64,000 bases of DNA from Vampirovibrionales bacterium. Lineage in GTDB: Bacteria > Cyanobacteriota > Vampirovibrionia > Vampirovibrionales > JAJTHC01. Shown here piece by piece: positions 1,640-63,393 of the stretch. Both the position numbers and the translations under genes were made by a program. Position 1 is the stretch's first letter, and each line of letters begins with the position of its first letter. A model generated the notes under the pieces. That model was not told the origin of the DNA, ran no database searches, and saw nothing but the letters and a program-made list of their open reading frames with translations. Location of the stretch: positions 20,047 through 84,046 of the forward strand of contig JBIKNF010000004.1 of assembly GCA_044358835.1 (NCBI GenBank), written 5' to 3'.

Positions 1640-2902
1640 ATGCATCGTGACTTTTTTAACGCATTTTTCAAACCCTTTGGCTGGCATCGAATCGGACGCC
1701 TTGGCCTGTTGTGGGTGTTGTTACTATTTTGCACGGGGCCTCTTTTCTTAAGCGGATGCGATGTGCCGGGGAGTAAACCGCCTGTAGAAGAAGGATCGCC
1801 AGAAGCCGAAGGCGAAGACACTGAAGAAAGCGAAGACGGTGAAGGTGAAGGTGAAGGCGAAGACGGTGAAGAAGGCGAATCCCCCAAAAAGCCCGTCGTC
1901 CCCACTCCCCCCGCACTCACGCATTTAAACTACACCCTCCCCGAAGACTTCCACCCCACTCGACTGAGCTGGACAACCGCGGACGGCTTTATTCTACAAG
2001 GCGATTTATACAGCCCGTATGGCGAAGTACAAGCCCTCAAAGCGCCTGCCCCCCCCAAAGCCGCAGCACCCGCAGGTGATGAGGAGGCGGAAGCAGAGGC
2101 CGAAGACGCGGAAGCCCCCGAAGAAGAGGCTGAAGCCCCTGCCAAACCTAAAACCCCTCCGCCACGGCCCGTGCCAAGCTTTCGATACCCCTTGGTGGTG
2201 TTGACGCATCGTTTGTCGTCTTCAGGCAAGCGGGTGAAGTTTTTGGTACCAGAGTTTGTTAAGGCAGGCTATGCGGTTTTGGTATTGGACGTTCGGGGCC
2301 ACGGCATAAGTGAAGGCTTGGCGTATGGGGGCATGAAATCTTGGCGGGTGTTTGACGCCTTGGACTGGAGGCAACTCACCAAGGATCTAAAGCAGGTGGA
2401 ACAGTACTTTAGGCGCCCCGAACTGGATCTCGCCAAGTTCCCCCTAGAAGTAAAACCCAAGAAAATGACGATGATTGCCGAAGGCATTAGTGCCAACGCT
2501 TGTTTGGTAAACGCAGCGGAACAAGATGTTCATTTGAATGCTGTGATTAGTATTGGAGCCACCCTTGAAAGTAAGAAAATTAGCCCTATTTTGGCGGTCA
2601 TGAATAGCCATGTGCCGATTTTATACATGGCCAGTGAAAGTGAAGAAATGAGCTATGCAGACACGCAAAAGCTTTTTCGCATTACGGAATCGGCCAAAGC
2701 GCTAAGTTTATTTGCGGATGAAGGCCCAGGGATGGAACTGTTACGCAATGATGTAAAGGCTCAACAAACGGCCATGGCGTGGGTAAAGCGCTACATGCCC
2801 CCCGCAGAAGTGGAACCCGCCTTTCAGCAGGCGTTAAAAAACGCGACCATGGCGTGGGCGAAGCACAAGTCAACTCCACAGCCGATTGCTCATACCATTT
2901 AA
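1640..2902 (+). CDS. Lipoprotein with acidic/Ala-Pro low-complexity linkers and a degenerate alpha/beta-hydrolase domain
   Basis: Lipobox LSGC, E/G/D-rich tracts and a YAVLVLDVRGHGIS hydrolase motif. The nucleophile elbow reads IAEGISANA. Confidence 0.75.
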   Translation: MHRDFFNAFFKPFGWHRIGRLGLLWVLLLFCTGPLFLSGCDVPGSKPPVEEGSPEAEGEDTEESEDGEGEGEGEDGEEGESPKKPVVPTPPALTHLNYTLPEDFHPTRLSWTTADGFILQGDLYSPYGEVQALKAPAPPKAAAPAGDEEAEAEAEDAEAPEEEAEAPAKPKTPPPRPVPSFRYPLVVLTHRLSSSGKRVKFLVPEFVKAGYAVLVLDVRGHGISEGLAYGGMKSWRVFDALDWRQLTKDLKQVEQYFRRPELDLAKFPLEVKPKKMTMIAEGISANACLVNAAEQDVHLNAVISIGATLESKKISPILAVMNSHVPILYMASESEEMSYADTQKLFRITESAKALSLFADEGPGMELLRNDVKAQQTAMAWVKRYMPPAEVEPAFQQALKNATMAWAKHKSTPQPIAHTI

Positions 2903-4466: not shown

Positions 4467-5471
4467 ATGCCCCCCACAAGTCGACCCCATAATTGGATGC
4501 CCCCGTCTCTCCTGCCCCCAATGGCAGGCTGGTTACTGGTGGGCTTTCTCCTTTTTTACCCTGTCGTCTTATTGGGGGCTAAACAATTTCTTCCAGCCCT
4601 TCTCATTCAAGCTGAAGCCCTCACTCAAGGCAAAGGTCTCATCATTCCAGTGCCGTTTATGCTGAAATTCTTGATTTTTATTTTACTAGGGGGGGGAGGC
4701 TTGCTTTTACTTCGTTTACGGTTGGATGTCGCCTATCTCACCCACTGGGCAACGCAGTTTCCTCGTCCTCATCCCTTGCATGTAGACTATCACCCCGCTG
4801 AACCGTATAGCCTTTATGCCTTAGGACGCTGGGTGTTGTACCGCTTTTTGCGTATTGGCACCATCCCCCTACTTTTAGGGCTAAGCCTTGTCATCAGCCT
4901 ATGGCTTCAACTGCTTTTTCTGAACACATTTTTAGGAACCCCCTTCATGAAATGGCCTGTTGTTTATATCTTAGGCATTTTTTGGGTGCTGAGCTTGGGG
5001 CTATTGTTTTTCGCTTCTTTAGTCAATGCCGTGTGGCAAAGTTTAGGTTCTACCTTTGGGGTGTGTGCGGTCGTCACTGAACCGATGAAGGCACAACCGA
5101 TCTTGTTTAATCGCTGCCAACGCCTAAGTGCTTATACCCCGTGGGCATGGGGGCTGTATGGCTTAAAACTCTTGCTTCACCTATTGTGGGGGGGGGTGAG
5201 CCTATGGCTTCTATGGCATTACACTGTGAAAGATTTACTCACCCCTTATTTCCCTTGGTGGTGGGTATTACCCGCTTTATTGGGTTTGTGGCTAGCTGAA
5301 GTGTGCTTGGGCTATGCGCGTTTTGCGATTTATCACTTGGCTTTAGAAAAGTTTTACCAACAGTTGCCTCGTTTTATGAAAGAAGCGTTTACCCCCCCCG
5401 TGTCGATTTTCGAATCGCCTTTAGGAGTCACTCGTTCAACAGATCTTCATATAGAAGCCCCTGAAACATGA
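4467..5471 (+). CDS. Hypothetical multi-pass membrane protein
   Basis: Long ORF with about 6 hydrophobic segments. ATG at 4467 follows AAGGA. The stop overlaps the rsmD start (ATGA). Confidence 0.7.
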   Translation: MPPTSRPHNWMPPSLLPPMAGWLLVGFLLFYPVVLLGAKQFLPALLIQAEALTQGKGLIIPVPFMLKFLIFILLGGGGLLLLRLRLDVAYLTHWATQFPRPHPLHVDYHPAEPYSLYALGRWVLYRFLRIGTIPLLLGLSLVISLWLQLLFLNTFLGTPFMKWPVVYILGIFWVLSLGLLFFASLVNAVWQSLGSTFGVCAVVTEPMKAQPILFNRCQRLSAYTPWAWGLYGLKLLLHLLWGGVSLWLLWHYTVKDLLTPYFPWWWVLPALLGLWLAEVCLGYARFAIYHLALEKFYQQLPRFMKEAFTPPVSIFESPLGVTRSTDLHIEAPET

Positions 5472-6046
5472 TTAAAATACTGGCGGGACAATTTAAAGGT
5501 AGACTCCTTCAAACGCCAAAAGGAAGGGCTGTGAGACCCACCACGGCTCGGGTGCGTCAGCGCCTTTTTGACGTGTTGGCGTCCTATTGGCCCGATTCAA
5601 CAGGGGTGGATGCCTTTGCTGGTTCAGGGGCCATTGGCTTTGAAGCCCTTAGTCGTGGCGCGCGTAAGGTGTATGCCACGGAAACGCACCCACTACACGT
5701 CAAACTTATGCAACAAAATGCAGAAACCCTAAAGCTTACGAAAAACGAGTATACACTTGAAAATAAGTCCTTTGAAGCGTGGTGGAAGGCACAATCCAAC
5801 GACGTGGTGGGGTCTTTAGATTGGGTGTTTTTGGATCCCCCTTATGGCTACGAGGGTTTAGCAAGCCTTTTGGCGGAACTATTGACGCATTCGGCCTTGG
5901 CGGTGGGGACTTTAGTCATTGTAGAACATGGCAACACAAGTCAAGAGAAAGCGGTGCTAGAAGCCGTTATTAAGCCGTCGTGGGCGAGTGTGTTTCGCGT
6001 GCTGGACTGCGGAGATTCGAGCGTGTGGATTTTAGAGAAACGATGA
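5468..6046 (+). CDS. rsmD: 16S rRNA m2G966 methyltransferase
   Basis: MIKILAGQFKGRLL, VRPTTARVRQRLF, DAFAGSGAIGFEALSRGA and FLDPPY motifs. Confidence 0.93.
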   Translation: MIKILAGQFKGRLLQTPKGRAVRPTTARVRQRLFDVLASYWPDSTGVDAFAGSGAIGFEALSRGARKVYATETHPLHVKLMQQNAETLKLTKNEYTLENKSFEAWWKAQSNDVVGSLDWVFLDPPYGYEGLASLLAELLTHSALAVGTLVIVEHGNTSQEKAVLEAVIKPSWASVFRVLDCGDSSVWILEKR

Positions 6047-6127
6047 CCGCACTTTTTTTATTTGAGGAGGTTTCATGCTTATAAGTGTATAAAATAGCTG
6101 CATAGACATTGGCACAAGGATTTTTTC

Positions 6128-8005
6128 ATGATGATGAGCAACGAATATCTGGATACCATGCAGGCGTTTTTTAGAAATCGCCCTCGCTTGAACGACTGGC
6201 AACAGCAAAAAGCCGATGAAACTAAGCAAAGCGACGTGTACTATCAAGCCAAACCACTTCAACCGCAAGATCAAACCCGTGTCAATCAAAAAGTTGAACG
6301 AATTTTAGATGCCACCACCGTCTTGGATCAAGCATCTGAACAAGCCGCCCAAAGCACTGAAGTGGCGATCGGTAGTGTAGTAGGCTTGGGAACGCTTCCT
6401 GTAGTGATGGGCTTAAGCTTGGGTTCCCTTTTCTTAGCCGAAAATGCACTAAAAAAAGCTAAAAATCCCTTACTTGGGTTGTCTAAATACTTAACAATTC
6501 TTGGGGCAGGGGTTATCCCCACCCTTGCTTTAACAGGCTTTTCAGCCATTTGGGGGGCTCAACAAGAAACACGCGCCTCTCGTATCGCTCGACGCCAAAC
6601 CCGCCAAGGTGAACTCGCCAACCCCAATCGTTATGCGTTATTCACGGAAGAACAAAAGCAAATCGCATTACAAAATGCCTCCCACATTTCAAATGAATCC
6701 ATTGAAGCCGAAGAAAAAGCCAAAAATGATAAAACCGACGGCTTGGGCGGAGCTTTCCATCAGCTTAAAACGCTCGCAACGGACAAACAGTCCCATGAGC
6801 GAGACGAGTTACTCAACAAAGTGAATGAACGCTTAAACAAGCCTAATCAAGCCTTTTTACCACAGAATGAAAAAGAGTTGAAAGAAGATGCTGCGTTGGT
6901 GTCGAACATCACCCGAACGATTAACGATCAAAGTGAATCCTATACGGAAAATGTGGAAAATGCGTATCAAACCCTTAGCTTAGGATTTTCTTCCCTTGTG
7001 GCACTTCCGCTTACCCTAGGCATCACTTATTTACTTAGCAAAACAAAAATCCTAAAAGAAGGAGATTTTTCAACCAAAGCTCTAGTGGGTCTGGTCACAT
7101 TTTTGATTCTTGAAATCCCGCTTTTGATGTTGGGAAACAGCTTAGAACGTGACGGAGCCAGAGTGGCTCGTTGGAAGGCACGTCAGGACATAAAAAATAA
7201 TCCCAACAGTATGCTCGCCGTGCCTGATGAGGACAAGGCTTCGGTACAAGGCATTAAAGATGAAAACTTCAAACCTAAAGGCATTTGGGATAGCTTCAAG
7301 CAAGCCTTTACCCTACCTTTTGAGTTTATGAAAGACCATAAAGCGTATCAAGCGTGGGAAAAAACCGAAGGCATCGAAGAAAAGAAGCGTCGTAAGGCGT
7401 TGGATCAAATCCAACTAAGCCCTGAACAACGTGAAAAAGCCAAGCGTTTACAGGCTCGTACGCATGAAGCCTTTAACTTGACGGATGAATATTCGCAAGA
7501 CAGCGAAATGATGGAAGCCAGTACAGATACCCTCAAACAAATTGCAGGAGAAATTCCGCAATTGGCGTTAATGGCTCCTGCGGTGGCGATAGTGGCAGGG
7601 CATTATGTACCTTTGCCTAAGGTCAAATGGCTTGAAGAAGCAGCGAAGACGCATGGCATTGAAGTGCCGACAACTGATGTTAAAAAATGGGAACCCTTGC
7701 TCACTGATTGGCGTTTAGAAGCCTTGAAAGAATCGAAGCAAGTCAAATGGGTACAAAACCAATATAAAGAAATTAACGAAAAAATGGGGAAAGCACTGTT
7801 TAATAAGGGACTTCTTTTTCCTATCATAGGGGGGTTAGCTGTTTTACTAGGGCCGGTTTTATTGCTTAACAGCCTTTTCACACGCTGGCAGAAAGATTCG
7901 ATGCGGGTGGGCTTGATGCAAGCCGATGACGCCATGAAGCATCCCAACTTTTTTAAGTTGGACGGCCAAGAAAAGCAACGCCCTCCCAATCCCACCGTGG
8001 CTTAA
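6128..8005 (+). CDS. Hypothetical membrane protein with three internal repeats, each holding a hydrophobic hairpin
   Basis: 625-aa ORF with three similar modules; no signal peptide seen. Confidence 0.8.
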   Translation: MMMSNEYLDTMQAFFRNRPRLNDWQQQKADETKQSDVYYQAKPLQPQDQTRVNQKVERILDATTVLDQASEQAAQSTEVAIGSVVGLGTLPVVMGLSLGSLFLAENALKKAKNPLLGLSKYLTILGAGVIPTLALTGFSAIWGAQQETRASRIARRQTRQGELANPNRYALFTEEQKQIALQNASHISNESIEAEEKAKNDKTDGLGGAFHQLKTLATDKQSHERDELLNKVNERLNKPNQAFLPQNEKELKEDAALVSNITRTINDQSESYTENVENAYQTLSLGFSSLVALPLTLGITYLLSKTKILKEGDFSTKALVGLVTFLILEIPLLMLGNSLERDGARVARWKARQDIKNNPNSMLAVPDEDKASVQGIKDENFKPKGIWDSFKQAFTLPFEFMKDHKAYQAWEKTEGIEEKKRRKALDQIQLSPEQREKAKRLQARTHEAFNLTDEYSQDSEMMEASTDTLKQIAGEIPQLALMAPAVAIVAGHYVPLPKVKWLEEAAKTHGIEVPTTDVKKWEPLLTDWRLEALKESKQVKWVQNQYKEINEKMGKALFNKGLLFPIIGGLAVLLGPVLLLNSLFTRWQKDSMRVGLMQADDAMKHPNFFKLDGQEKQRPPNPTVA

Positions 8006-8030
8006 TGCCTAATCGTGACACGCTAAAAAA

Positions 8031-8058
8031 CACGCCTGCGATGATTTTCGCAGGCGTG
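8031..8058. terminator. Hairpin between convergent genes (probable terminator)
   Basis: Perfect 11-bp stem CACGCCTGCGA-TGATTT-TCGCAGGCGTG, preceded by an A run. Confidence 0.7.
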
Positions 8059-8087
8059 TGGTTCTTTCAGGAGGTGCATTGGGGGAT

Positions 8088-9542
8088 TTATTGCGCATAG
8101 CCCGTGTATTGTTGGGGGTATTGTTGATAAGCTGTATTCGGATCATAAGGCGCAGTATACACAGGGGGGTAAGGATTGTACCCTTGGTAAGGATCATAAT
8201 TCACAGGCATTGAAGAATACATCGGTTGATAAGGCGTGTAGGCTTGGTAGGGATTGTACGTTTGAAAAGAACTATATGCTTGGTAAGGTTCCATGTACCG
8301 TTGAGGAGGAGCATACACGGGAGGGTATGGGTTATAGCTCTGGTAAGGATCATAAGCATTGTAGTAAGGGGGGGTGTATCCGTAATTCGGTTGCACCGCG
8401 GCATAAGGGTCTGCATCGCCCGCGATTGGGAAAGAATTATAGTCTGTATTATAGTTTGGGCTATATCCTGTGTTATATCCTGTGCTAGGAGGCGCATAAG
8501 GATTATTATACAAGGGAGGAGCGTAGTCATAATCAGGCGTGGCAGAAGGCGTTTTAGACCACGTATTGCCTTTATTGACCACATGTAAATCATAGTACTG
8601 ATTTAAGTACACTGGATCGCTGGTTCCTGCAGCAGCCCGTTCGGTGGCGCCTTTTCCATCTGCAATGCGGTTGCCCCAGCGGATTTCATTTTCACTTCGC
8701 AAGGTGGCGGCATAAGAAGGATCCACGCCCTTGTCTTGCAAGGCTTTAAGTGTGGCAGGGTCAAAGCGTTCATAGTGCGTTAAGGTAATCGGCACATTTC
8801 CTGAATTGCCAGACTTCATTTCAAGCTTTGCCAAGGGATCTTTAGGATCTCCGATAATCAATGGGGTCGATGAGTTGGGGTTAAATACCGTGACGTTGCC
8901 TTTAGGATCGATATACTTGGTTTGCCCGTCAGAAAGTAAAACACTGTGTTTTTCGCCCGTTTTCGGGTCAATAATCGTGGCCTTACTTTCAGTGGCCGCA
9001 ACGTTGTCCTTACGATCGGTGACGTTAATATCTTCATAAAAATTATTAATCACTAGGCCGTTGTCCGCATACACCCGCACCGCGGTGCCACTGGGGGGGT
9101 GAAACGTCCCTTCGTGATTACTGGTGCCAGTGATTTTGTACACTTCAGGATCGCCCGCGACACCGCCTTCATAGGTGGGTGTTTTGCCAGGGTTGTAATA
9201 ATAGATTTTGTTGACATTGCTTGAGGTTGATGTTTTAGAAACATCGTCCAATGAAGCAACAGTGTAATTTTTCCATTGATTCTTGGCATCGGTAAGGGGG
9301 AACTTGTTGTAGTACGCATCGGCCACAAAGCCGGTGGCTTGATCTCCTTCAGAGTTGAGATACACGTTTTTTTGTTGTGGGTAATAAGGCACGTAAGAAG
9401 GTGGCGTGTACACAGGGGGTGCATAGTAAATGGGTGCTGATTGAGGAGGAGGATTATAAATAGGCAACGGCTGTTGAGGCATATAGGTTTGATAAGGGGT
9501 GTAAGGCTGATAGCTTTGAGGGGGAAAGTTATAAAGAGACAT
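8088..9542 (-). CDS. Hypothetical protein: Tyr/Pro/Gln-rich termini flanking a globular core
   Basis: 484-aa ORF. The C-terminus has repeats such as YDPYQSYNPYPPVYAPPQ and YDPYQGYNPYPPVYTAP. Confidence 0.8.
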   Translation of the reverse strand: MSLYNFPPQSYQPYTPYQTYMPQQPLPIYNPPPQSAPIYYAPPVYTPPSYVPYYPQQKNVYLNSEGDQATGFVADAYYNKFPLTDAKNQWKNYTVASLDDVSKTSTSSNVNKIYYYNPGKTPTYEGGVAGDPEVYKITGTSNHEGTFHPPSGTAVRVYADNGLVINNFYEDINVTDRKDNVAATESKATIIDPKTGEKHSVLLSDGQTKYIDPKGNVTVFNPNSSTPLIIGDPKDPLAKLEMKSGNSGNVPITLTHYERFDPATLKALQDKGVDPSYAATLRSENEIRWGNRIADGKGATERAAAGTSDPVYLNQYYDLHVVNKGNTWSKTPSATPDYDYAPPLYNNPYAPPSTGYNTGYSPNYNTDYNSFPIAGDADPYAAVQPNYGYTPPYYNAYDPYQSYNPYPPVYAPPQRYMEPYQAYSSFQTYNPYQAYTPYQPMYSSMPVNYDPYQGYNPYPPVYTAPYDPNTAYQQYPQQYTGYAQ

Positions 9543-9592
9543 AAAAATCGTTCACTTTCTACATAGGGTTGAGGAGTTGCATTGAGCTTGCT

Positions 9593-9738
9593 ATAATGTT
9601 CGCTATATAAAACGGTCTATGGTCTCTTCGTTGTAGCTACGATTTTTTTGCTTGGTTATGTAGCCTGTCTACACGCCCGCACAAAAAATCTAAGCTCCTA
9701 GAATAGCCTCATAGCCTGTTTCATCTATCGAACATTAT
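9593..9738. mobile_element. MITE-like repeat family B, full copy (146 bp)
   Basis: The termini ATAATGTTCGCTATATAAAAC and GTTTCATCTATCGAACATTAT are inverted repeats. The interior matches 32072-32148, 46999-47036 and 38509-38553. Confidence 0.75.
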
Positions 9739-9796
9739 GGGAATATCTTGGTCTATGTGAAAGGTATCGGTGGATGTGAAACGTTGCTTCAATCGC

Positions 9797-9815
9797 TTGT
9801 AACATTCCGTTACGA
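9797..9815. promoter_or_regulatory. Palindromic putative transcription-factor site TTGTAAC-N5-GTTACGA
   Basis: Near-identical to the perfect palindrome at 44231-44251. Confidence 0.45.
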
Positions 9816-9822
9816 AACATTG

Positions 9823-9851
9823 AAAAAGCCACCCTCTAAATGAGTGGCTTT
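9823..9851. terminator. Hairpin, probable terminator of glgP-direction transcription
   Basis: AAAGCCAC...GTGGCTTT stem with an A run on + (U run on -). Confidence 0.55.
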
Positions 9852-9969
9852 ACTCCCTCTCCCTCTGGGAGAGGGTTGGGGTGAGGGTCTTAGGATGCCC
9901 ATCCATGCTGGTGTTTCCCTCATCCTAGCCTTCTCCCAGAGGGAGAAGGAACAAGGCAAAATAGACTTT
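9846..9969. repeat. REP-like doublet (family D), copy 1
   Basis: CCCTCTCCCTCTGGGAGAGGGTTGGGGTGAGGG plus an inverted partner CCCTCATCCTAGCCTTCTCCCAGAGGGAGAAGG; homologous to 42344-42489. Confidence 0.8.
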
Positions 9970-9989
9970 TACGGAGTGTTCTATAATTC

Positions 9990-10099
9990 TTACAACGCTG
10001 CGGGCTGATACAAGAACGTGTAGTATTCAATCGCCATACGGTCGCTGTCAAAGTACAGAGAAGCAAACTGAATCGCCCGTTGCATCAATTCCGCCCACC
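9990..10099 (-). repeat. Displaced duplicate of the glgP 3' end (110-bp direct repeat)
   Basis: 108/110 identical to 10587-10696 and includes the TAA stop. Both differences are synonymous in the GlgP frame. Confidence 0.95.
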
Positions 10100-10542
10100 T
10101 ATATCGCATCAATATTGAAGTGGTATCCATGAATTTTTAATTTCTTACTTTGATCCTCACTCAAGCCAACGGTGGTTACAGCCTCTCCTTTTTGAAATTT
10201 ACCCTTAAATTCAATGCTATAGAAAATTCCCTCAGGGGTATATTGTACTTGAGTGGTAGCATCATCCCCCTTGTCACGTGTTAAGAATTTTCCTAAATGC
10301 TTATTTTGAAATATGAATATTTTTTTATTTTTATCTTTAGTCACTACTTTCTTATAGTCGTCTGTAGTTAATTCATTATAAATATCATCGTAGGCTTGAT
10401 CGTTATATTTTTTGTATAATTGATCTAAAGTAGCATTGATTTCAGGCTCTTTATCACCCAGTAGCGAGAAACAACCAGTCAAATTAGTACAAATTAAAAT
10501 AACCACAAAAACACCTATAATACTTCGTAATTGTTGAATCAT
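10099..10542 (-). CDS. AT-rich foreign-looking lipoprotein (147 aa)
   Basis: Lipobox LTGC and an AAGGA SD. The sequence is visibly much more AT-rich than its flanks and lies between the two glgP 3'-end repeats. Confidence 0.85.
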   Translation of the reverse strand: MIQQLRSIIGVFVVILICTNLTGCFSLLGDKEPEINATLDQLYKKYNDQAYDDIYNELTTDDYKKVVTKDKNKKIFIFQNKHLGKFLTRDKGDDATTQVQYTPEGIFYSIEFKGKFQKGEAVTTVGLSEDQSKKLKIHGYHFNIDAI

Positions 10543-10586
10543 TATTTCATCCTTCTGTAATTGAATACGGTAATATACAAAGGGTA

Positions 10587-12200
10587 TTACAAGGCTGCGG
10601 GCTGATACAAGAACGTATAGTATTCAATCGCCATACGGTCGCTGTCAAAGTACAGAGAAGCAAACTGAATCGCCCGTTGCATCAATTCCGCCCACCGTTG
10701 AGGGTGATCATAATACGTCGGCAAAACACGGTCTTCAATAATGGTCATCATGCTTTCATAATCGCGTTGGTGTAATTCTGCATCACTCGCATTACCACTG
10801 GTGCCTTCAGGATTGATGATGAAGCCGTTATACTCGTCAAAGGTACCTTCAACCGCCCAGCCGTCATCCGTAGACATATGCAAAGTTCCGTTAAAATTGG
10901 CAGACATCCCTGAAGTGCCTGAGGCTTCCAAGGGGCGCTGAGGCGTATTGAGCCATAAATCAGCCCCCCGCTTCATGCGACCGGAAAGTTCCAGTTCGTA
11001 ACCAGGTAAAATCGCCACACCCTTCATGGTTTTAGAAAGCGCAATCACATGGTTAAAGGTGTCACGTCCCCACGTGTCTTTGGGGTGAAACTTACCCGCA
11101 AACACGATTTGAAGCTTTTTAGAATCCAGCAAACGCTTAATGCGGGCCATGTCCTTAAAAATGAGATCCGCCCTCTTGTAAGCGGTAAAGCGTCTTGCCC
11201 ACACAATGGTAAAGACATCAGGATCCAAACTCGTGCCCGCTTCTTGGTTGACGAATTCAATGAACTCCTTACGCATGACTTTTTTAGCACTGAGCAGTTC
11301 TTCGGCGGTTTTGGCTTGGGCAATACGTTCGTCTTGCCAGTATTTTAAATTGGTGGCGTTAGTGACAGCGTGAATGTTGCAACGTCCTTGCACCCACTTC
11401 CACATATCGGCGGCGACTTCTCCATGAAGTTGAGACACCCCATTGGCGAGACGGCTTAAACGCAACGCCGCCACCGTCAAAGAAAAATGATCGCCCCCTA
11501 AACGGCAGGCTTCATCCCGATGGGTATTGACAAAAAAGCCCGCTTCTAGCAATAAATCTACAGGGTGAATTTCATTGCCCGCAGGCACAGGCGTATGCGT
11601 GGTAAACACAAGCTTTGAACGCACCAAGTCATAGTTATTTCCATAAAGCCTTAAAAGTTCAAACGCCGCTGGTAAGGCATGGCCTTCATTCATGTGTACG
11701 GTGTCATACTTTACGGAAAGAGCCGACAAGGCGCGCACGCCCCCCACGCCCAAAATAACTTCTTGAGCCACACGAATACGTTCATCCGCATCATAAAGCT
11801 TGTTGGAATAATCTCGCACGTGTTGGGGATTTTCAGGCAAATCAGTGGTTAGGAAGTAGCACGGGCATGTGCCGAAGGTCTTGGGTTCCAGCAAAAACGG
11901 CTTGACTTTGACGAGTTCACCGTAAATGGAAACATCAACCGTCACGCCTGTGTCAACCAAAAAGTCGTAGGAACGATCGACATACTTAATTTGAATTTCG
12001 TTATTTTCGTCGATGTATTGATCCCCATAACCCTGTTTCCAAAGAATGCTCACGCCCACCATAGGTAAGCCCAAGTTCCCTGCCGAAAGCATGTGAGAGC
12101 CTGACAAAAAGCCCAAGCCCCCAGAATAGGTATGAAAACTTTGATCAATCGCCATTTCCATGGTGAAGTAGGCCACTTTTTGTAAAAGAGCAAGATGCAT
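10587..12200 (-). CDS. glgP: Short alpha-glucan (glycogen/maltodextrin) phosphorylase, GT35 family
   Basis: YSGGLGFLSG, HMNEGH, FTTHTPVPAGNE, WARRFTAYKR and EASGTSGM motifs. Confidence 0.9.
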   Translation of the reverse strand: MHLALLQKVAYFTMEMAIDQSFHTYSGGLGFLSGSHMLSAGNLGLPMVGVSILWKQGYGDQYIDENNEIQIKYVDRSYDFLVDTGVTVDVSIYGELVKVKPFLLEPKTFGTCPCYFLTTDLPENPQHVRDYSNKLYDADERIRVAQEVILGVGGVRALSALSVKYDTVHMNEGHALPAAFELLRLYGNNYDLVRSKLVFTTHTPVPAGNEIHPVDLLLEAGFFVNTHRDEACRLGGDHFSLTVAALRLSRLANGVSQLHGEVAADMWKWVQGRCNIHAVTNATNLKYWQDERIAQAKTAEELLSAKKVMRKEFIEFVNQEAGTSLDPDVFTIVWARRFTAYKRADLIFKDMARIKRLLDSKKLQIVFAGKFHPKDTWGRDTFNHVIALSKTMKGVAILPGYELELSGRMKRGADLWLNTPQRPLEASGTSGMSANFNGTLHMSTDDGWAVEGTFDEYNGFIINPEGTSGNASDAELHQRDYESMMTIIEDRVLPTYYDHPQRWAELMQRAIQFASLYFDSDRMAIEYYTFLYQPAAL

Positions 12201-59176: not shown

Positions 59177-59276
59177 TCAATGTTCCACGCCCCCTTGGGA
59201 AACTTAAGGGGGCATTTTCAAGATTATGGCTTGACTCTCATCTATGCTTGGCTTACTCTTATACAAGTTCAAGAAT

Positions 59277-59348
59277 GCGTCCATAGCTCAGCGGTAGAGC
59301 AGTCCCCTTTTAAGGGAAAGGTCCTGAGTTCGAATCTCAGTGGACGCA
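59277..59348 (+). tRNA. tRNA-Lys (TTT), CCA not encoded
   Basis: Acceptor GCGTCCA/TGGACGC, D-arm GCTC/GAGC, anticodon loop CTTTTAA and T-arm CTGAG-TTCGAAT-CTCAG. Promoter TTGACT-17-TACTCT at 59231-59259. Confidence 0.96.
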
Positions 59349-59350
59349 TA

Positions 59351-59383: not shown

Positions 59384-59520
59384 ATACAAGAAAAGGCAAA
59401 CGTCGATTTTCCACCATATAGGGGATGCTTTTCACAAGTCGTTTTGGTATCGTATACTTAATGTACACCTCAAGGCTAGTTGCGACTGCGTTGAGCCTAA
59501 CACAAGGATTGATCTGAGTG

Positions 59521-59970
59521 ATGATGATGATGTCTCTTTCAAACACGACCCTTCGCCCCAGTCGAAGACGCACCCCCCCCGCTCAAGAAAGCCACACCCC
59601 CACCGTGTGGATCGTGGAAGATGAAGCCAAGTGGCAAGACGCCTTTTCACTTCTAGTGGGCATGGCCTTTGCGGGTGCTCACATTCAACAAGCGGATTGT
59701 GCCGAAAAAACGCAAGATTGGTTGACCCTTAGTGCCAAGCAAACGGCCCCCCAGTGGGCGGATGCCGTGTTGATGGATTGGCAGCTCGCCAATGGCGATG
59801 ACGGCTTGGCGTTGGTGAACGCGTGGGTGGAAGCGGGTTTGCCAGCAGAACGAGTGATTATCGTGAGTGGGGCGGATGATGTGCCGTCGCATCCTTACAC
59901 AGTGGTGACCAAATCGCAAGCTGGGGCTTTGCTGGTGCCGACCCTATTGCAACTGGCGAATAAAGTCTAA
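59521..59970 (+). CDS. Stand-alone response-regulator receiver protein
   Basis: VWIVEDE, phospho-acceptor VLMDW, IIVSG and VVTKS. Confidence 0.8.
   Translation: MMMMSLSNTTLRPSRRRTPPAQESHTPTVWIVEDEAKWQDAFSLLVGMAFAGAHIQQADCAEKTQDWLTLSAKQTAPQWADAVLMDWQLANGDDGLALVNAWVEAGLPAERVIIVSGADDVPSHPYTVVTKSQAGALLVPTLLQLANKV
59946..59970. repeat. 25-bp direct repeat, left boundary of the RT islet
   Basis: ATTGCAACTGGCGAATAAAGTCTAA, identical to 61950-61974. Confidence 0.95.
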
Positions 59971-60081
59971 GGTCTCTTTAAGCTGTCCCACTTGTGGGTT
60001 AAGGGGCGGTTAAACCCTAGACTCCGTTTGTGGTATCATAATTCTCTTAGGTTTGTTTTATTTGTGGAGTGTCCTTTTATT

Positions 60082-61905
60082 ATGGTAGATATATTACCTA
60101 TATTTTTAGATGACAAACAGGCTGATTTTTTTACAAACACGGATAAAATCCCACCTTATTTTACGACCAAGTTTTTTTTTGATTTTATCAATAAACAAAA
60201 AAAAATAAACACATTGTTGACAAAAAAGATTAAAGAAACCAAATGCCTTCGATTTACAGCACCCAATAAAAAAACTTCACATAGAAGAGAATTAAAAGTT
60301 CCAAACCCTTATGTATACTTACAATTAGCTCATAAAGTATCAGAACTCTACACAAAGCAACAAGATAAAGACACAGTCCCAAATTTAAAAACAGATAAGC
60401 TCTTGAACCTTCAGTTTGAAAAAGAAAAACCTATCTTAAAAAAACATGACGTAATCAGTTCAAGGTGTTACAAGGATGTTCAAGGCTATTCTTATCATTT
60501 AAAAATAGACATCAGTCAATTTTATCCAAGTATTTACACTCATTCAATACCATGGGCTGTTTTAGGAAAAAAGGATGCAAAGAAAAAGTATAATGATTCG
60601 AGTCTTAAATGTGATCTATATAAGTTAGGGGATGAAATAGACAAATTACTAGAAAAGATGAATAGCAAGCAAACCAAAGGAATACCTGTTGGAGCGACGT
60701 TATTTCATTTTGTGGCAAAGCTAATTACAGACAGAATAGATAAAGAATTTAGTGATTTTATTGAAAAAGGCAAGATAGATTGTGAGTTTAGTCATTATGT
60801 AGATGATTACTACGTATTTTGTCATAGTGAAGCAGATGCAAATCGTCTTCTTTCTGAATTCGGAAACATTTTAAATCGCTATGAATTACATATAAATGCT
60901 AACAAAACCCAAATTACTCATGTTGATGAATGGTCAGTTCTCCCTTTTTGGCGACCCATTATAGAAGAAGTATTAGATGTATTTAATGATTTAAAAAATG
61001 ATGTTCTTTGGTCAAAATTAACCGAAAAAAGACTATTACGCTGTTTTGAAAGAATAAGGCAATTAAGAAAAGGGAAATATAAAGCAGAACAGCATTTAAA
61101 TTATTTCCTTTCATCCTTATTGAGTCTTTTAGAAAAACCTTTATTAGAATATTACGCTATTCTCTTCATGAATTTTTTAATAGAAGTTTCTAAAGATCCT
61201 CTAGAGGTTACTTTAATGTATCCACGACCTTCTTCTCCATTATTTATAAGTCTTTACCTGAGTGTTCATGACTTTCAAACACTTGTAGAGACCTTTATTC
61301 TTCCTTTCATTATGCAATGTATTTCACTAGAACCTTCAACCATTCGATACATAGCGGAGCAAAAAACTGTTAAAATGCTCAAACCTTTCCTTCAGAACAA
61401 TGAAAAGTCTAAGAAAGTAATAAAAGCGACTCTTCAAAAAACGATAGACCGTTATTACACTCAAGAGCTGATGTGGGTATTGTATGTTTTGATTGAATAT
61501 GAGCTATTAGATATTGTTGCTAATGATAAAAATGATCTATACGAGAGACTCAAGGAATATCCTAACTCAATGGTAAAATGTTTAGTTATGGAAATTGAAC
61601 TTGATCCAAATTTTTGTAGTGGTTTTGAAGAAAGTTTATTCGAGAAAACAAAATCGGACTATAAAAAATTTAAAGATGAAGATTGGAAGGATCTATTTAA
61701 AAGTGAAGATTGGCTTTTGTACTTTTTTATGCGAGGCAAGGGACGTGAACAAAATGAGGATTTCACACTCTGCGAAACAGGCATCCCGTTAATAGATAAT
61801 TTTTTCAAAGCGACGACAGGAAACAAAACGTTTTTTGATAAAGAGGCTAAAGTTCTCAAACGAAGCTATTATGACCCACATTTTCAGAATGATGCATCAT
61901 CCTAA
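60082..61905 (+). CDS. Abi/UG-class reverse transcriptase (AbiK-like), 607 aa, probable anti-phage protein
   Basis: RRELKVPNP, DISQFYPSIYTHSIPWA, QTKGIPVG, HYVDDY and INANKT motifs, plus a long helical C-terminal region. Visibly AT-rich; ATG at 60082 after a GGAG SD. Confidence 0.9.
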   Translation: MVDILPIFLDDKQADFFTNTDKIPPYFTTKFFFDFINKQKKINTLLTKKIKETKCLRFTAPNKKTSHRRELKVPNPYVYLQLAHKVSELYTKQQDKDTVPNLKTDKLLNLQFEKEKPILKKHDVISSRCYKDVQGYSYHLKIDISQFYPSIYTHSIPWAVLGKKDAKKKYNDSSLKCDLYKLGDEIDKLLEKMNSKQTKGIPVGATLFHFVAKLITDRIDKEFSDFIEKGKIDCEFSHYVDDYYVFCHSEADANRLLSEFGNILNRYELHINANKTQITHVDEWSVLPFWRPIIEEVLDVFNDLKNDVLWSKLTEKRLLRCFERIRQLRKGKYKAEQHLNYFLSSLLSLLEKPLLEYYAILFMNFLIEVSKDPLEVTLMYPRPSSPLFISLYLSVHDFQTLVETFILPFIMQCISLEPSTIRYIAEQKTVKMLKPFLQNNEKSKKVIKATLQKTIDRYYTQELMWVLYVLIEYELLDIVANDKNDLYERLKEYPNSMVKCLVMEIELDPNFCSGFEESLFEKTKSDYKKFKDEDWKDLFKSEDWLLYFFMRGKGREQNEDFTLCETGIPLIDNFFKATTGNKTFFDKEAKVLKRSYYDPHFQNDASS

Positions 61906-61947
61906 CTAATCTTAATACCTCACCTCCCCCGCACTCCCATGGTAAGC

Positions 61948-63393
61948 TCATTGCAACTGGCGAATAAAGTCTAACGCCTCTTCTTTGCTATGGATGCGTC
62001 CCAAGGCGTGGGCGTCTTTGAGTTGTGCCAAGATCTGCCCTACCCGAGGGCTCGGGGGAATCCCCAACGCCTGCATGATGCTTTCACCGTCCAACAACGG
62101 CGGAGCCTGCCGTTGAGCCTTCCCCTGCCAATAGCGATGCAACAAATCCAGCAAGTCCGCTTGAGCCGTCGCCAAGGCTTCAGTCGTAAAGGCGTGACCC
62201 CGTGTACTTAAGGTATCCGCCAACGCCAGCACGATGAGAAAGGGCGTGTCTTCTGCGATACGCCGAAAAAAGCGGAGCCTGCTTTTTTCACTGCTTTGCT
62301 CGTCAAACGTACAGGGGTACAAATGCCATTCCACCAAGCGACTCACCCGATGCTTCACCGCTTGGCTCAGTTTCCATTCACTCAACAAAGGGCTAAGCAC
62401 GTCGACTCCCTTTTTTTCATGCCCGATGAATCGGTGCCGAAAGTTGGGTTCTACCTGCCATGTGTGCGGTTTGGCAATATCGTGAAACAGGCACGCCATT
62501 TTGACCAAGCCGTATTCGCTCGCCCCATGACTGCTGGGTTGTGTTAAGGCGTTTTGGGTGTGGGCGTCTAAAATAGGGTAAATGAGTTCAGCTTGACGGA
62601 TGAGTTCTAGGCTATGTTCCCACAACGGCAAGTGATGATGCGAATTGGGACTCACCATTTTCAGCGCTTTTAGGGGGGGGAACAACGCTTCTAAAATGCC
62701 AGCATCCGCCATGATTTGCATCGTGGGGAAGGCGTTTTCGGCGGAAAGCAACTTAAACCACTCGACTGCCATGCGTTCTTTGGCGACGCTATGTAAGTAA
62801 GGTAGGCAGGCTTTTGCCCAGTTTAAGGTTTTGGCTTCAATTGTAGTAGGGGTTTGAGCCGTGTTTAAGCTCGCATGAAAGCGAAAGATCCGTAAAATCC
62901 GCAAGGGATCGTCCTTAAGATTCTCAAGGCTCAAGGCTCGAATCACGCCAGCGTCTAAATCCGCTTGCCCCTCGTATAAATCGAGCAATTCACCGCGTTG
63001 CGTATGCACCGCTAGAGTATTGAGGCTTAAATCCCGACGCGCCAAGTCCGCTGTAATATCATCCCCTTGCACCTGAACGACATCCAAAAATAGCGGCGGG
63101 CGTTGCGTGTCTTCATGCAAGAAAACGACCCGATAAATCCCCCACGATTCATCCAACACCACCAACCGTGTATGCGGAACGGCGTCTTGCACGGCGTGAG
63201 CCACCGCTTTGGCGGACGCTCCCACAATACTCACGTCTATATCTTCAAGGGGAAAGGGCTTGTTGAGTAGTGCATCTCGAACGGCACCCCCCACGATGTA
63301 AGCGTCTGCTCCAGCGAAGGCTTTTAGCGCCTCATTTAGGGCGACAATGCGAACATCACTTAAAAGTTGGGCGAAAACATTAGTCGGATTCAT
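61948..63393 (-). CDS. cca: Class II tRNA nucleotidyltransferase with HD domain (probably CC-adding)
   Basis: IVGGAVRDALL, DIDV, DLARRDLSLN, DDPLRILRIFRF, ERMAVEWFKLL and LFHDIAKP. Confidence 0.88.
   Translation of the reverse strand: MNPTNVFAQLLSDVRIVALNEALKAFAGADAYIVGGAVRDALLNKPFPLEDIDVSIVGASAKAVAHAVQDAVPHTRLVVLDESWGIYRVVFLHEDTQRPPLFLDVVQVQGDDITADLARRDLSLNTLAVHTQRGELLDLYEGQADLDAGVIRALSLENLKDDPLRILRIFRFHASLNTAQTPTTIEAKTLNWAKACLPYLHSVAKERMAVEWFKLLSAENAFPTMQIMADAGILEALFPPLKALKMVSPNSHHHLPLWEHSLELIRQAELIYPILDAHTQNALTQPSSHGASEYGLVKMACLFHDIAKPHTWQVEPNFRHRFIGHEKKGVDVLSPLLSEWKLSQAVKHRVSRLVEWHLYPCTFDEQSSEKSRLRFFRRIAEDTPFLIVLALADTLSTRGHAFTTEALATAQADLLDLLHRYWQGKAQRQAPPLLDGESIMQALGIPPSPRVGQILAQLKDAHALGRIHSKEEALDFIRQLQ
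61950..61974. repeat. 25-bp direct repeat, right boundary of the RT islet
   Basis: Identical to 59946-59970; on the minus strand it encodes LDFIRQLQ of the cca-family gene. Confidence 0.95.

Follow-up and report, generated by a model that had tools for sequence, protein, structure and literature searches.

Here we describe a solitary reverse transcriptase (RT) gene in a 64,000-nucleotide stretch of DNA (hereafter the window; contig JBIKNF010000004.1, positions 20,047 to 84,046 of the forward strand) assembled from a Vampirovibrionales bacterium. The Vampirovibrionales lie within the non-photosynthetic sister group of Cyanobacteria. The RT gene occupies window positions 60082-61905 on the forward strand, between a response-regulator-like gene and a convergent gene of the CCA-adding/poly(A) polymerase family. 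Open reading frame, profile, structure-model, tree and selection analyses point to an enzyme of Class 1 of the UG/Abi RTs that belongs to a rare, unnamed clade, and comparison of related loci suggests that the gene reached its present site as a very small transplanted islet.

The reverse transcriptase gene and its immediate flanks

The open reading frame (ORF) of the RT is intact from ATG to stop codon and encodes 607 amino acids (aa). An alternative in-frame TTG start at 59992 would give a product of 637 aa; the ATG at 60082 is the likely start, because the homologous proteins P0002-P0004 begin with the same MVDI(L/V)P (homologous proteins and their loci are referred to by P and L numbers throughout). 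The tetranucleotide GGAG lies at 60066-60069, 12 nt 5' of this ATG. All of the motifs on which the initial annotation had based its description of an intact RT core could be located in the ORF: DISQFY at aa 143-148 (nucleotides 60508-60525), the segment GIPVGATLFHFVAKL at aa 200-214 and YVDD at aa 239-242 (nucleotides 60796-60807), followed towards the C-terminus by YTQELMWVLY (aa 459-468), WLLYFF (aa 544-549) and DNFF (aa 572-575). The significance of the identification is well above chance, as judged from the match to the Pfam family RVT_1 (E = 8e-16, residues 112-286), the match to the PADLOC Drt6 model (E = 2e-72) and the occurrence of a 1.8-kb open frame in DNA of 31% guanine-plus-cytosine (GC) content.

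According to alignments with RVT_1 and with PDB sequences (residues 21-283), the RT fingers and palm comprise approximately aa 20-290 (60139-60951, forward strand), with D143 in motif A, QTKGIPVG as motif B, YVDD at 239-242 as motif C and K275 in motif D. Residues D143, G200, D241, D242 and K275 are invariant in an alignment of 54 Class 1 sequences. In place of a thumb, the secondary structure of an AlphaFold2 model, fold matches and profile alignment predict a C-terminal all-helical (alpha-repeat) domain at aa ~290-577 (60949-61812, forward strand), in keeping with an earlier description of about 320 aa of helical sequence in this part of the protein. The helical domain carries a clade-specific insertion of ~45 aa (aa ~352-398), which is missing from one member of the clade, P0005.

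The gene has little flanking sequence of its own. Exactly 111 nt separate its ATG from the stop codon of the upstream ORF (59518-59970), as had been counted previously, and 42 nt (61906-61947), not the 44 bp given in the initial annotation, lie between the stop codons of the RT and of the convergent gene (61948-63393). A putative promoter on the forward strand, read from the sequence (60010-60039), would consist of a -35-like TTAAAC (60010-60015), an 18-nt spacer and the extended -10 element TGGTATCAT (60031-60039), the last of which had already been noted. The extended -10 is conserved in other copies of the gene, including those of L004, of L007 (as TGGTATAAT) and of L003 (as TGTTATCAT); a generic promoter scan did not list the putative promoter at 60010-60039.

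Searches for a structured RNA were uniformly negative. Rfam, run on the flanks in E-value mode and on the whole window and six related loci in gathering mode, returned tRNAs only. RNA folds of the 5' and 3' flanks in the window, on both strands, were no better than those of shuffled sequences (z -1.1 to +1.5), and folds of the upstream regions in L003, L114, L115 and L116 were likewise not significant, all flank folds together giving z values of -1.7 to +1.5. Orthologous upstream sequences give differing predicted folds, and the upstream sequence is not common to the different RT subclades. These results agree with the initial view that there is little room here for an msr/msd region or a non-coding RNA (ncRNA) of the DRT2/DRT9 type.

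Class assignment and nearest relatives

What defines a Class 1 UG/Abi RT is an alpha-helical (HEAT-like, alphaRep) C-terminal domain fused in place of the thumb (PMC9226505). With its RT core and predicted all-helical C-terminal domain the window protein is assigned to this class, which includes AbiK, the enzyme to which the initial annotation had likened this stand-alone RT. We compared it with profiles from Pfam, PADLOC and the NCBIfam equivalogs, the last with their bit cut-offs. Its top 14 PADLOC matches are all Class 1 models, among them Drt6 (2e-72), Drt4 (1e-57), UG30 (4e-54), UG31 (6e-45), AbiK (9e-42), AbiP2 (1e-38) and Drt3b (1.5e-38). No retron, group II intron or diversity-generating retroelement (DGR) membership was detected, and the clustering with such RTs that the initial annotation had held up as grounds for rejecting its proposal was not seen: family HMM scores were far under the cut-offs (45.9 bits against 300 for the NCBIfam group II intron RT, 31 against 235 for the retron RT), and the flanks contained no Rfam family and no significant fold.

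Within Class 1, the window RT passes the threshold of no named group, its best model giving 243 bits. This score, on the Drt6 model (242.6 bits), comes from profile positions 16-310 of 511 only, whereas the genuine members P0006, P0007, P0009 and P0015 score 448-585 bits over nearly the whole profile; genuine members of other groups reach 699-713 bits on UG14, 612 on UG30 and 641-642 on AbiP2. On the NCBIfam Drt4 model (NF041749) the window RT obtains 142.6 bits against a cut-off of 450, which does not support DRT4 membership.

By sequence, the best match in the PDB was the DRT6 structure 9wy8 (5e-25), followed by DRT4/UG15 (4.5e-21), Abi-P2 (6e-19), Drt3b and finally AbiK (1e-12), the weakest of the Class 1 matches. 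A profile of the clade found the same DRT6 structure first (7e-38), in an alignment collinear through most of the helical domain, and reached residue 421 of DRT4 and residue 523 of AbiK. The AlphaFold2 model of the window RT, built from a 54-sequence alignment (mean predicted local distance difference test score 82, predicted template modelling score 0.87), combines an RT core of mixed alpha/beta structure with, C-terminal to it, an all-helical domain at residues 290-577. Foldseek matched this model in full length to the DRT6 hexamer 9wy8 with a template modelling (TM) score of 0.79, normalised to the target, to UG15 9l9s (0.71) and to DRT4 9vdo (0.72), and more poorly to AbiK (~0.55; 0.52-0.57), Abi-P2 (0.57) and AbiA (0.36). 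The structural alignments to DRT6, UG15 and AbiK span 570-640 columns, that is, the full length, whereas the fold match to retron, group II, DRT2 and DRT9 RTs is confined to the RT core.

The nearest characterised relatives of the window RT are thus DRT6 (UG12) and DRT4 (UG15), with AbiK distant. The label "AbiK-like" used in the initial annotation sits poorly with an AbiK model that ranks eighth in PADLOC (142 bits versus 243 for Drt6), a PDB E-value of 1e-12 and a TM score of ~0.55 against 0.79 for DRT6 and 0.71 for UG15, and should be better worded as "DRT6/DRT4-like, unnamed Class 1 clade".

An RT-domain tree computed by neighbour joining from 256 columns, with 100 bootstraps and with Drt6, UG14+AbiP2 and UG30 anchors, groups the window RT with P0001-P0005 and P0054-P0056. 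This clade has 100% bootstrap support and a long stem; it branches beside the three sets of anchors and is nested in none of them. Together with the failure to reach any named-group threshold, this bears out the earlier suggestion of a new subfamily.

Likeness to the named systems is of several degrees. DRT6 (for example Sphingopyxis PHR10625.1, structure 9wy8) is likewise a single-gene Class 1 RT with an RT core and a helical-repeat domain, is the top HMM, PDB-sequence and fold match, and shares with the window RT the block GY.Y...DI..F.PSIYTHSIPWA. It differs in being only ~20% identical, in that the window RT scores less than half of what true members reach and in the position of the window RT outside the Drt6 anchors of the tree; the window RT is also ~100 aa longer, has the helical-domain insertion and has Phe in place of a conserved N-terminal Tyr. 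DRT4 from E. coli (structures 9vdo, 9l9s and 21ou) is also a stand-alone Class 1 RT, and its profile alignment with the window RT covers residues 26-434; the two differ in that identity is 17-18%, the NCBIfam score is far below the cut-off and the priming Tyr125 of DRT4 aligns to Lys. AbiK from Lactococcus (7r06/7z0z), a protein of ~600 aa of which residues 55-523 are covered by the clade-profile alignment, and Abi-P2 (7r08) have class, architecture, motif order and stand-alone status in common with the window RT but are much more distant, and the N-terminus of the window RT is ~26 aa shorter than that of AbiK. The literature searched contained no publication on the structure of DRT6 (9wy8) or on Vampirovibrionia RTs.

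Distribution and genomic neighbourhoods

The RT clade is distinct and very rare. In an exhaustive HMMER search of 1.84 billion representative sequences, only P0004, P0005, P0054, P0055, P0056 and P0057 (a fragment) scored above the generic RT-core plateau of ~140 bits, which corresponds to about six clusters at 50% identity, and word-indexed searches contributed one further clade member, P0201. Scans of metagenomes and viral contigs with the clade profile returned distant RT-core matches only, and no close relative of the window RT was found in phage and plasmid records. As regards the hosts, the CCA-adding/poly(A) polymerase-family gene next to the window's RT shares 88-93% identity with genes of metagenome-assembled genomes (MAGs) labelled Vampirovibrionales, and P0004 comes from a complete chromosome of "Vampirovibrio sp.".

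Members of the clade occur in four unrelated neighbourhoods: between the response-regulator-like gene and the CCA-enzyme gene (window, L004 and L005), directly upstream of arginase (L001, L002/L003 and L115), just downstream of nadC/QRPTase (L114 and L116), and, in the case of P0005 in L006, beside a tRNA and a complete type I restriction-modification (R-M) system with integrase. No partner gene is common to the four, and the RT gene is solo because these unrelated neighbourhoods share no partner, as the initial annotation had expected from the window by itself.

Several features adjoining individual copies were recorded. In L006, the type I HsdR/S/M set and integrase that adjoin P0005 lie at 4644-9672 and 9907-10872, and the tRNA at 2667-2739, 177 nt upstream of the RT. 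In L114, a cytosine methylase and an Eco47II-type endonuclease (8568-10636) are found ~1.6 kb downstream of P0201, beyond ubiD. In L002, a 215-aa ORF (1982-2629, reverse strand) located 425 nt upstream of the RT starts within a recombinase zinc-ribbon domain (Pfam Zn_ribbon_recom, 29.8 bits); having no catalytic domain, it is probably the remnant of a large serine recombinase.

An islet bracketed by a duplicated target

The RT gene lies in the only strong low-GC islet of the 64-kb window: GC is 0.29-0.32 across 60000-61750 (~31% for the islet), compared with 0.49-0.55 to either side. A direct repeat, overlooked in the initial annotation, encloses the islet; its copies at 59946-59978 and 61950-61982 share 25/25 exact positions and 31/33 identity overall. 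The response-regulator-like ORF 59518-59970 takes its last codons and its stop from the left copy, and in the CCA-adding/poly(A) polymerase-family gene (61948-63393, reverse strand) the 3' end is formed by the right copy. Adjoining the left copy, positions 59979-59995 appear by eye to be a decayed continuation of it that matches the right flank at ~62016-62040 after an internal deletion of ~35 nt (TCTTTAAGCTGTCCCA matching TCTTTGAGTTGTGCCA there). On the right, the duplication probably reaches about 62043; L007 keeps an undeleted version of ~95 nt, and the tract thus appears to have been originally longer than the left copy now present in the window.

The unoccupied state of the site is represented by L009 and L011, in which the response-regulator and CCA-enzyme genes converge with 3' ends overlapping by ~21 nt and the repeat sequence occurs once. 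The insertion would have duplicated this 3' overlap, and therefore both genes keep their ends. The L009 contig (JBEISK010000012.1) is labelled as a Gammaproteobacteria MAG; its CCA gene is 92% identical to that of the window and its junction is as in Vampirovibrionales, and the contig is probably mis-binned.

The junction is a variable hotspot. It is occupied by the RT in the window, L004 and L007, and by other cargoes elsewhere: a 519-aa KAP/STAND-like P-loop NTPase with GC 0.31 in L013, a 643-aa TPR protein in L012 and two small ORFs without assigned function in L008, all cargoes having the same orientation and low GC. L010 was considered as a further alternative cargo and rejected, its large ORF being an NFACT/RqcH housekeeping gene at a rearranged junction. 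A tRNA-Lys(UUU) gene is located near the hotspot at 59276-59349 (forward strand), ~170 nt upstream of the response-regulator gene. The junction resembles core-genome integration hotspots with defence genes in being empty or differently filled between two conserved core genes. It differs from known hotspots in that its islets are only 1.3-2 kb long and carry no recombinase, and in that the target is formed by the overlapping 3' ends of two convergent genes and is duplicated on insertion.

Both ends of the islet contain recognisable sequence from another locus. DNA similarity between RT-islet copies begins at 59996, and positions 59996-60021 (forward strand) hold the string GGGTTAAGGGGCGGTTAAACCCTAGA, a string that L003 and L115 also have beside their RT alleles at the arginase locus and that would represent a scrap of the left flank of that locus. 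In the 3' flank of the islet (61906-61947, forward strand), comparison with L004, L003, L001 and L115 suggests that ~61926-61942 (CCCCCGCACTCCCATGG) is a remnant of the arginase 5' untranslated region and start codon from which 12 nt of the Shine-Dalgarno region have been deleted. The right islet end reads ...CACTCCCATGG, with the intact counterpart CCCCCACAAAAAAAGGACACTCCCGTGG in L004; in L003, L001 and L115 the CCCCCACAAAAAAAGGACACTCCCGTGG string runs into the arginase ATG. The same arginase flanks surround the L115 RT allele, which is only 38% identical.

From these comparisons the window islet appears to be a passively transplanted copy of an arginase-locus segment and not a self-mobile element, because its ends are the host flanks of the arginase-upstream slot, including the arginase Shine-Dalgarno sequence and start codon. 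The RT segment would have been copied from that slot into the response-regulator/CCA-enzyme junction, with duplication of the target. Two other descriptions of the ends were tried and discarded: termini belonging to the cassette itself (direct repeat plus shared ends), since the comparison with L115 identified the supposed ends as arginase-locus host sequence, and a G-rich terminal inverted repeat seen by eye, which is not conserved in L003.

One assembly gave an additional observation on this islet. L007 (Logan SRR7182472) is a 2077-bp contig with an exact 30-nt overlap of its end and start, giving a closed 2047-bp cycle in the k=31 assembly graph. The cycle consists of the RT islet together with ~95 nt from the 3' end of the CCA gene, and may represent a circle that was excised, a tandem copy or an artefact that the direct repeat caused in the de Bruijn graph.

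Selection, horizontal transfer and possible allele replacement

The RT gene is functional and under purifying selection: five diverged copies are all intact and show ratios of nonsynonymous to synonymous substitution (dN/dS) of 0.27-0.48, two to three times those of a core gene. Between the window and L001/L003 the synonymous divergence (dS) of the RT is 0.25-0.31, while the CCA genes of the same genomes are saturated (dS of at least 2.2, 59-62% aa identity). Copies at the shared site, too, show a lower dS for the RT (0.22) than for the CCA gene (0.53). Such values show that the RT cassette has moved horizontally, and fairly recently, between Vampirovibrionales lineages. RT GC is 0.30-0.32 in every copy of the clade, against 0.40-0.52 in the flanks.

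Divergent alleles occupy the arginase slot (L115 218-2160 versus L003 913-2870), where arginases are 85-87% identical and host flanks are conserved while the RT alleles are only 37-40% identical, a pattern that fits allele replacement under diversifying pressure. Taken together, empty sites, foreign GC, other cargo, transfer and nearby R-M systems look like accessory or defence-like behaviour.

Proposed mechanism and alternative explanations

The best-documented mechanistic model for enzymes of this kind is DRT4, a hexamer primed by a Tyr residue (PMC12783706). DRT4 and DRT6 are single-gene Class 1 RTs that form oligomers, constitutively synthesise template-independent, protein-linked random single-stranded DNA (ssDNA) and act by abortive infection, in which the phage T5 ssDNA-binding protein ORF55 shields the DNA from host exonuclease and cell death follows (PMC12783706). 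AbiK and Abi-P2 likewise carry out protein-primed, untemplated synthesis (PMC9508834). Priming sites in Class 1 are known at four places, namely Y44 of AbiK, Y61 of Abi-P2, Y298/Y303 of AbiA and Y125 of DRT4 (PMC12783706), and the Class 1 enzyme Drt3b, which works with a partner, makes a defined, protein-templated product (PMC13174585).

We consider it fairly probable that the window RT is an abortive-infection enzyme of the DRT4/DRT6 type that performs protein-primed, untemplated ssDNA synthesis. This model is the best supported because of the architecture of the protein, its solo status and the lack of an RNA. In this scheme the RT would assemble into an oligomer and make ssDNA of undefined sequence without an RNA or DNA template, and the product would stay covalently linked to a side chain of the enzyme. 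In uninfected cells, host 3'-5' exonucleases would remove the ssDNA; on infection, it would be shielded by an ssDNA-binding factor of the phage and build up, and this build-up would arrest or kill the cell ahead of phage release. We infer the oligomer, untemplated synthesis, protein priming, trigger and defence phenotype by homology.

With regard to the priming residue, a column that is Tyr in 68% of other Class 1 matches (GYFP..LPP) is Phe (Phe16) in all of the clade members that align there (8 of 9). Residue 29 of the window RT aligns to AbiK 55, which would put AbiK Tyr44 near residues 16-20 (FFTNT), a stretch with no Tyr, the part of AbiK before residue 55 not being directly aligned. Tyr125 of DRT4 aligns to His122 in a single-sequence comparison or to Lys120/121 in a profile comparison, in a loop that is of low confidence in both alignment and model, and P0005 is the only clade member with Tyr at this position. 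The "different priming mode" put forward in the initial annotation is unproven, and four priming positions have already been published for Class 1; a fifth would be an extension of the known pattern and not a new principle.

Several considerations weigh against the DRT4/DRT6-type interpretation. The clade has no conserved Tyr at either of the alignable known priming positions (Phe16; Lys120/121), and the defined product and partner of Drt3b mean that random ssDNA is not guaranteed for a Class 1 enzyme (PMC13174585). The window RT fails every named-group threshold, so that transfer of a mechanism across ~20% identity is an extrapolation, and the attribution of defence and polymerase activity to the clade draws on homology. 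The tree is a simple neighbour-joining reconstruction with limited sampling and without AbiK or DRT4 anchors. Finally, most copies of the RT are situated among housekeeping genes and not in classic defence islands.

Some of the same observations can be accommodated by a Class 1 defence RT with a different chemistry, that is, priming from Ser, Thr or another Tyr, a sequence-defined product as in Drt3b, or a distant partner. The known priming positions are not conserved in the clade, which stands on a long stem and has the ~45-aa insertion in its helical domain, and Class 1 already holds several priming sites and product types (PMC12783706, PMC13174585). Set against this, the catalytic motifs are all canonical, there is no positive sign of another product and none of the four contexts includes a linked partner gene; we regard a different chemistry as unlikely.

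A domesticated RT that serves the cell outside defence, possibly in connection with the neighbouring arginase/polyamine genes, would explain why the gene sits directly upstream of arginase in L001, L002/L003 and L115 although these RTs are only 37-40% identical, and why its neighbours are mostly housekeeping genes; some UG groups, moreover, are not enriched near defence genes (PMC9226505). However, the same or related RTs also occur at the CCA junction and downstream of nadC, and the gene is missing from the close relatives L009 and L011. Foreign composition, horizontal transfer and a dN/dS that exceeds the core gene's two- to threefold argue in the same direction, and the shared RT-arginase flanks, being host sequence, fit a reusable insertion slot. 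A cellular role thus seems quite improbable.

It is highly improbable that the RT is a self-mobile retroelement that copies and inserts its own transcript with a long target duplication. Such an element might be suspected from the discrete, RT-only unit of ~1.95 kb at two or more sites, the target duplication of 33 to ~95 nt, the A-rich tract near the 3' end of some copies and the closed 2047-bp cycle in one assembly. The islet ends, however, are no termini specific to an element but derive from the arginase locus, namely from the terminator-side flank of the host and from the Shine-Dalgarno sequence and ATG of arginase, the A-rich tract being the arginase Shine-Dalgarno region itself, and non-RT cargoes enter the same junction in the same orientation; the segment contains its own promoter, which a self-transcript would lack, and the class of the enzyme lacks a thumb and is known for synthesis without a template. 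Equally slim is the chance that the enzyme is template-dependent and works with an ncRNA close by, as retrons, DRT2, DRT9 or DRT10 do: the sister subclade of L114 and L116 has a conserved upstream region of ~165 nt, but the window offers only ~40 nt of 5' leader and the 42-nt 3' flank, the flanks gave no Rfam match and no better-than-shuffled fold, the folds being inconsistent between orthologues, upstream sequence is not common to the subclades, and Class 2 and retron RTs give weak HMM and fold matches.

Irrespective of its exact chemistry, the clade adds a deep-branching and very rare lineage of Class 1 RTs from little-studied predatory relatives of cyanobacteria, and since it has no conserved Tyr at the alignable known priming positions, it could show flexibility of the priming site. 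Current understanding is not overturned, as architecture and likely mechanism fit DRT4, DRT6 and AbiK. The genomic setting shows, in a clear natural case, a gene of defence type that moves within a minimal islet: sites without an insert, with the RT and with other cargo are all represented, together with a long duplication of the target and flank scraps that reveal the origin of the segment. A broader proposal, possible if somewhat doubtful, is that the clade represents new, Vampirovibrionales-restricted single-gene defence RTs with a novel priming residue or a different product, the alleles of which (down to 37% identity) are swapped in a few fixed slots of the core genome. If true, this would offer a natural system for the study of Class 1 RT diversification and of the recombinase-free movement of tiny defence islets.

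Other features of the window

Two further features were recorded far from the RT locus. An ORF of 484 aa at 8088-9542 (reverse strand) has low-complexity N- and C-terminal regions rich in Pro, Tyr and Gln, with repeated motifs of the P-Y-x-P-Y type. A second, weaker low-GC stretch of the window at 9543-10586 (minimum 0.345) contains a lipoprotein-like ORF of 147 aa at 10099-10542 (reverse strand).

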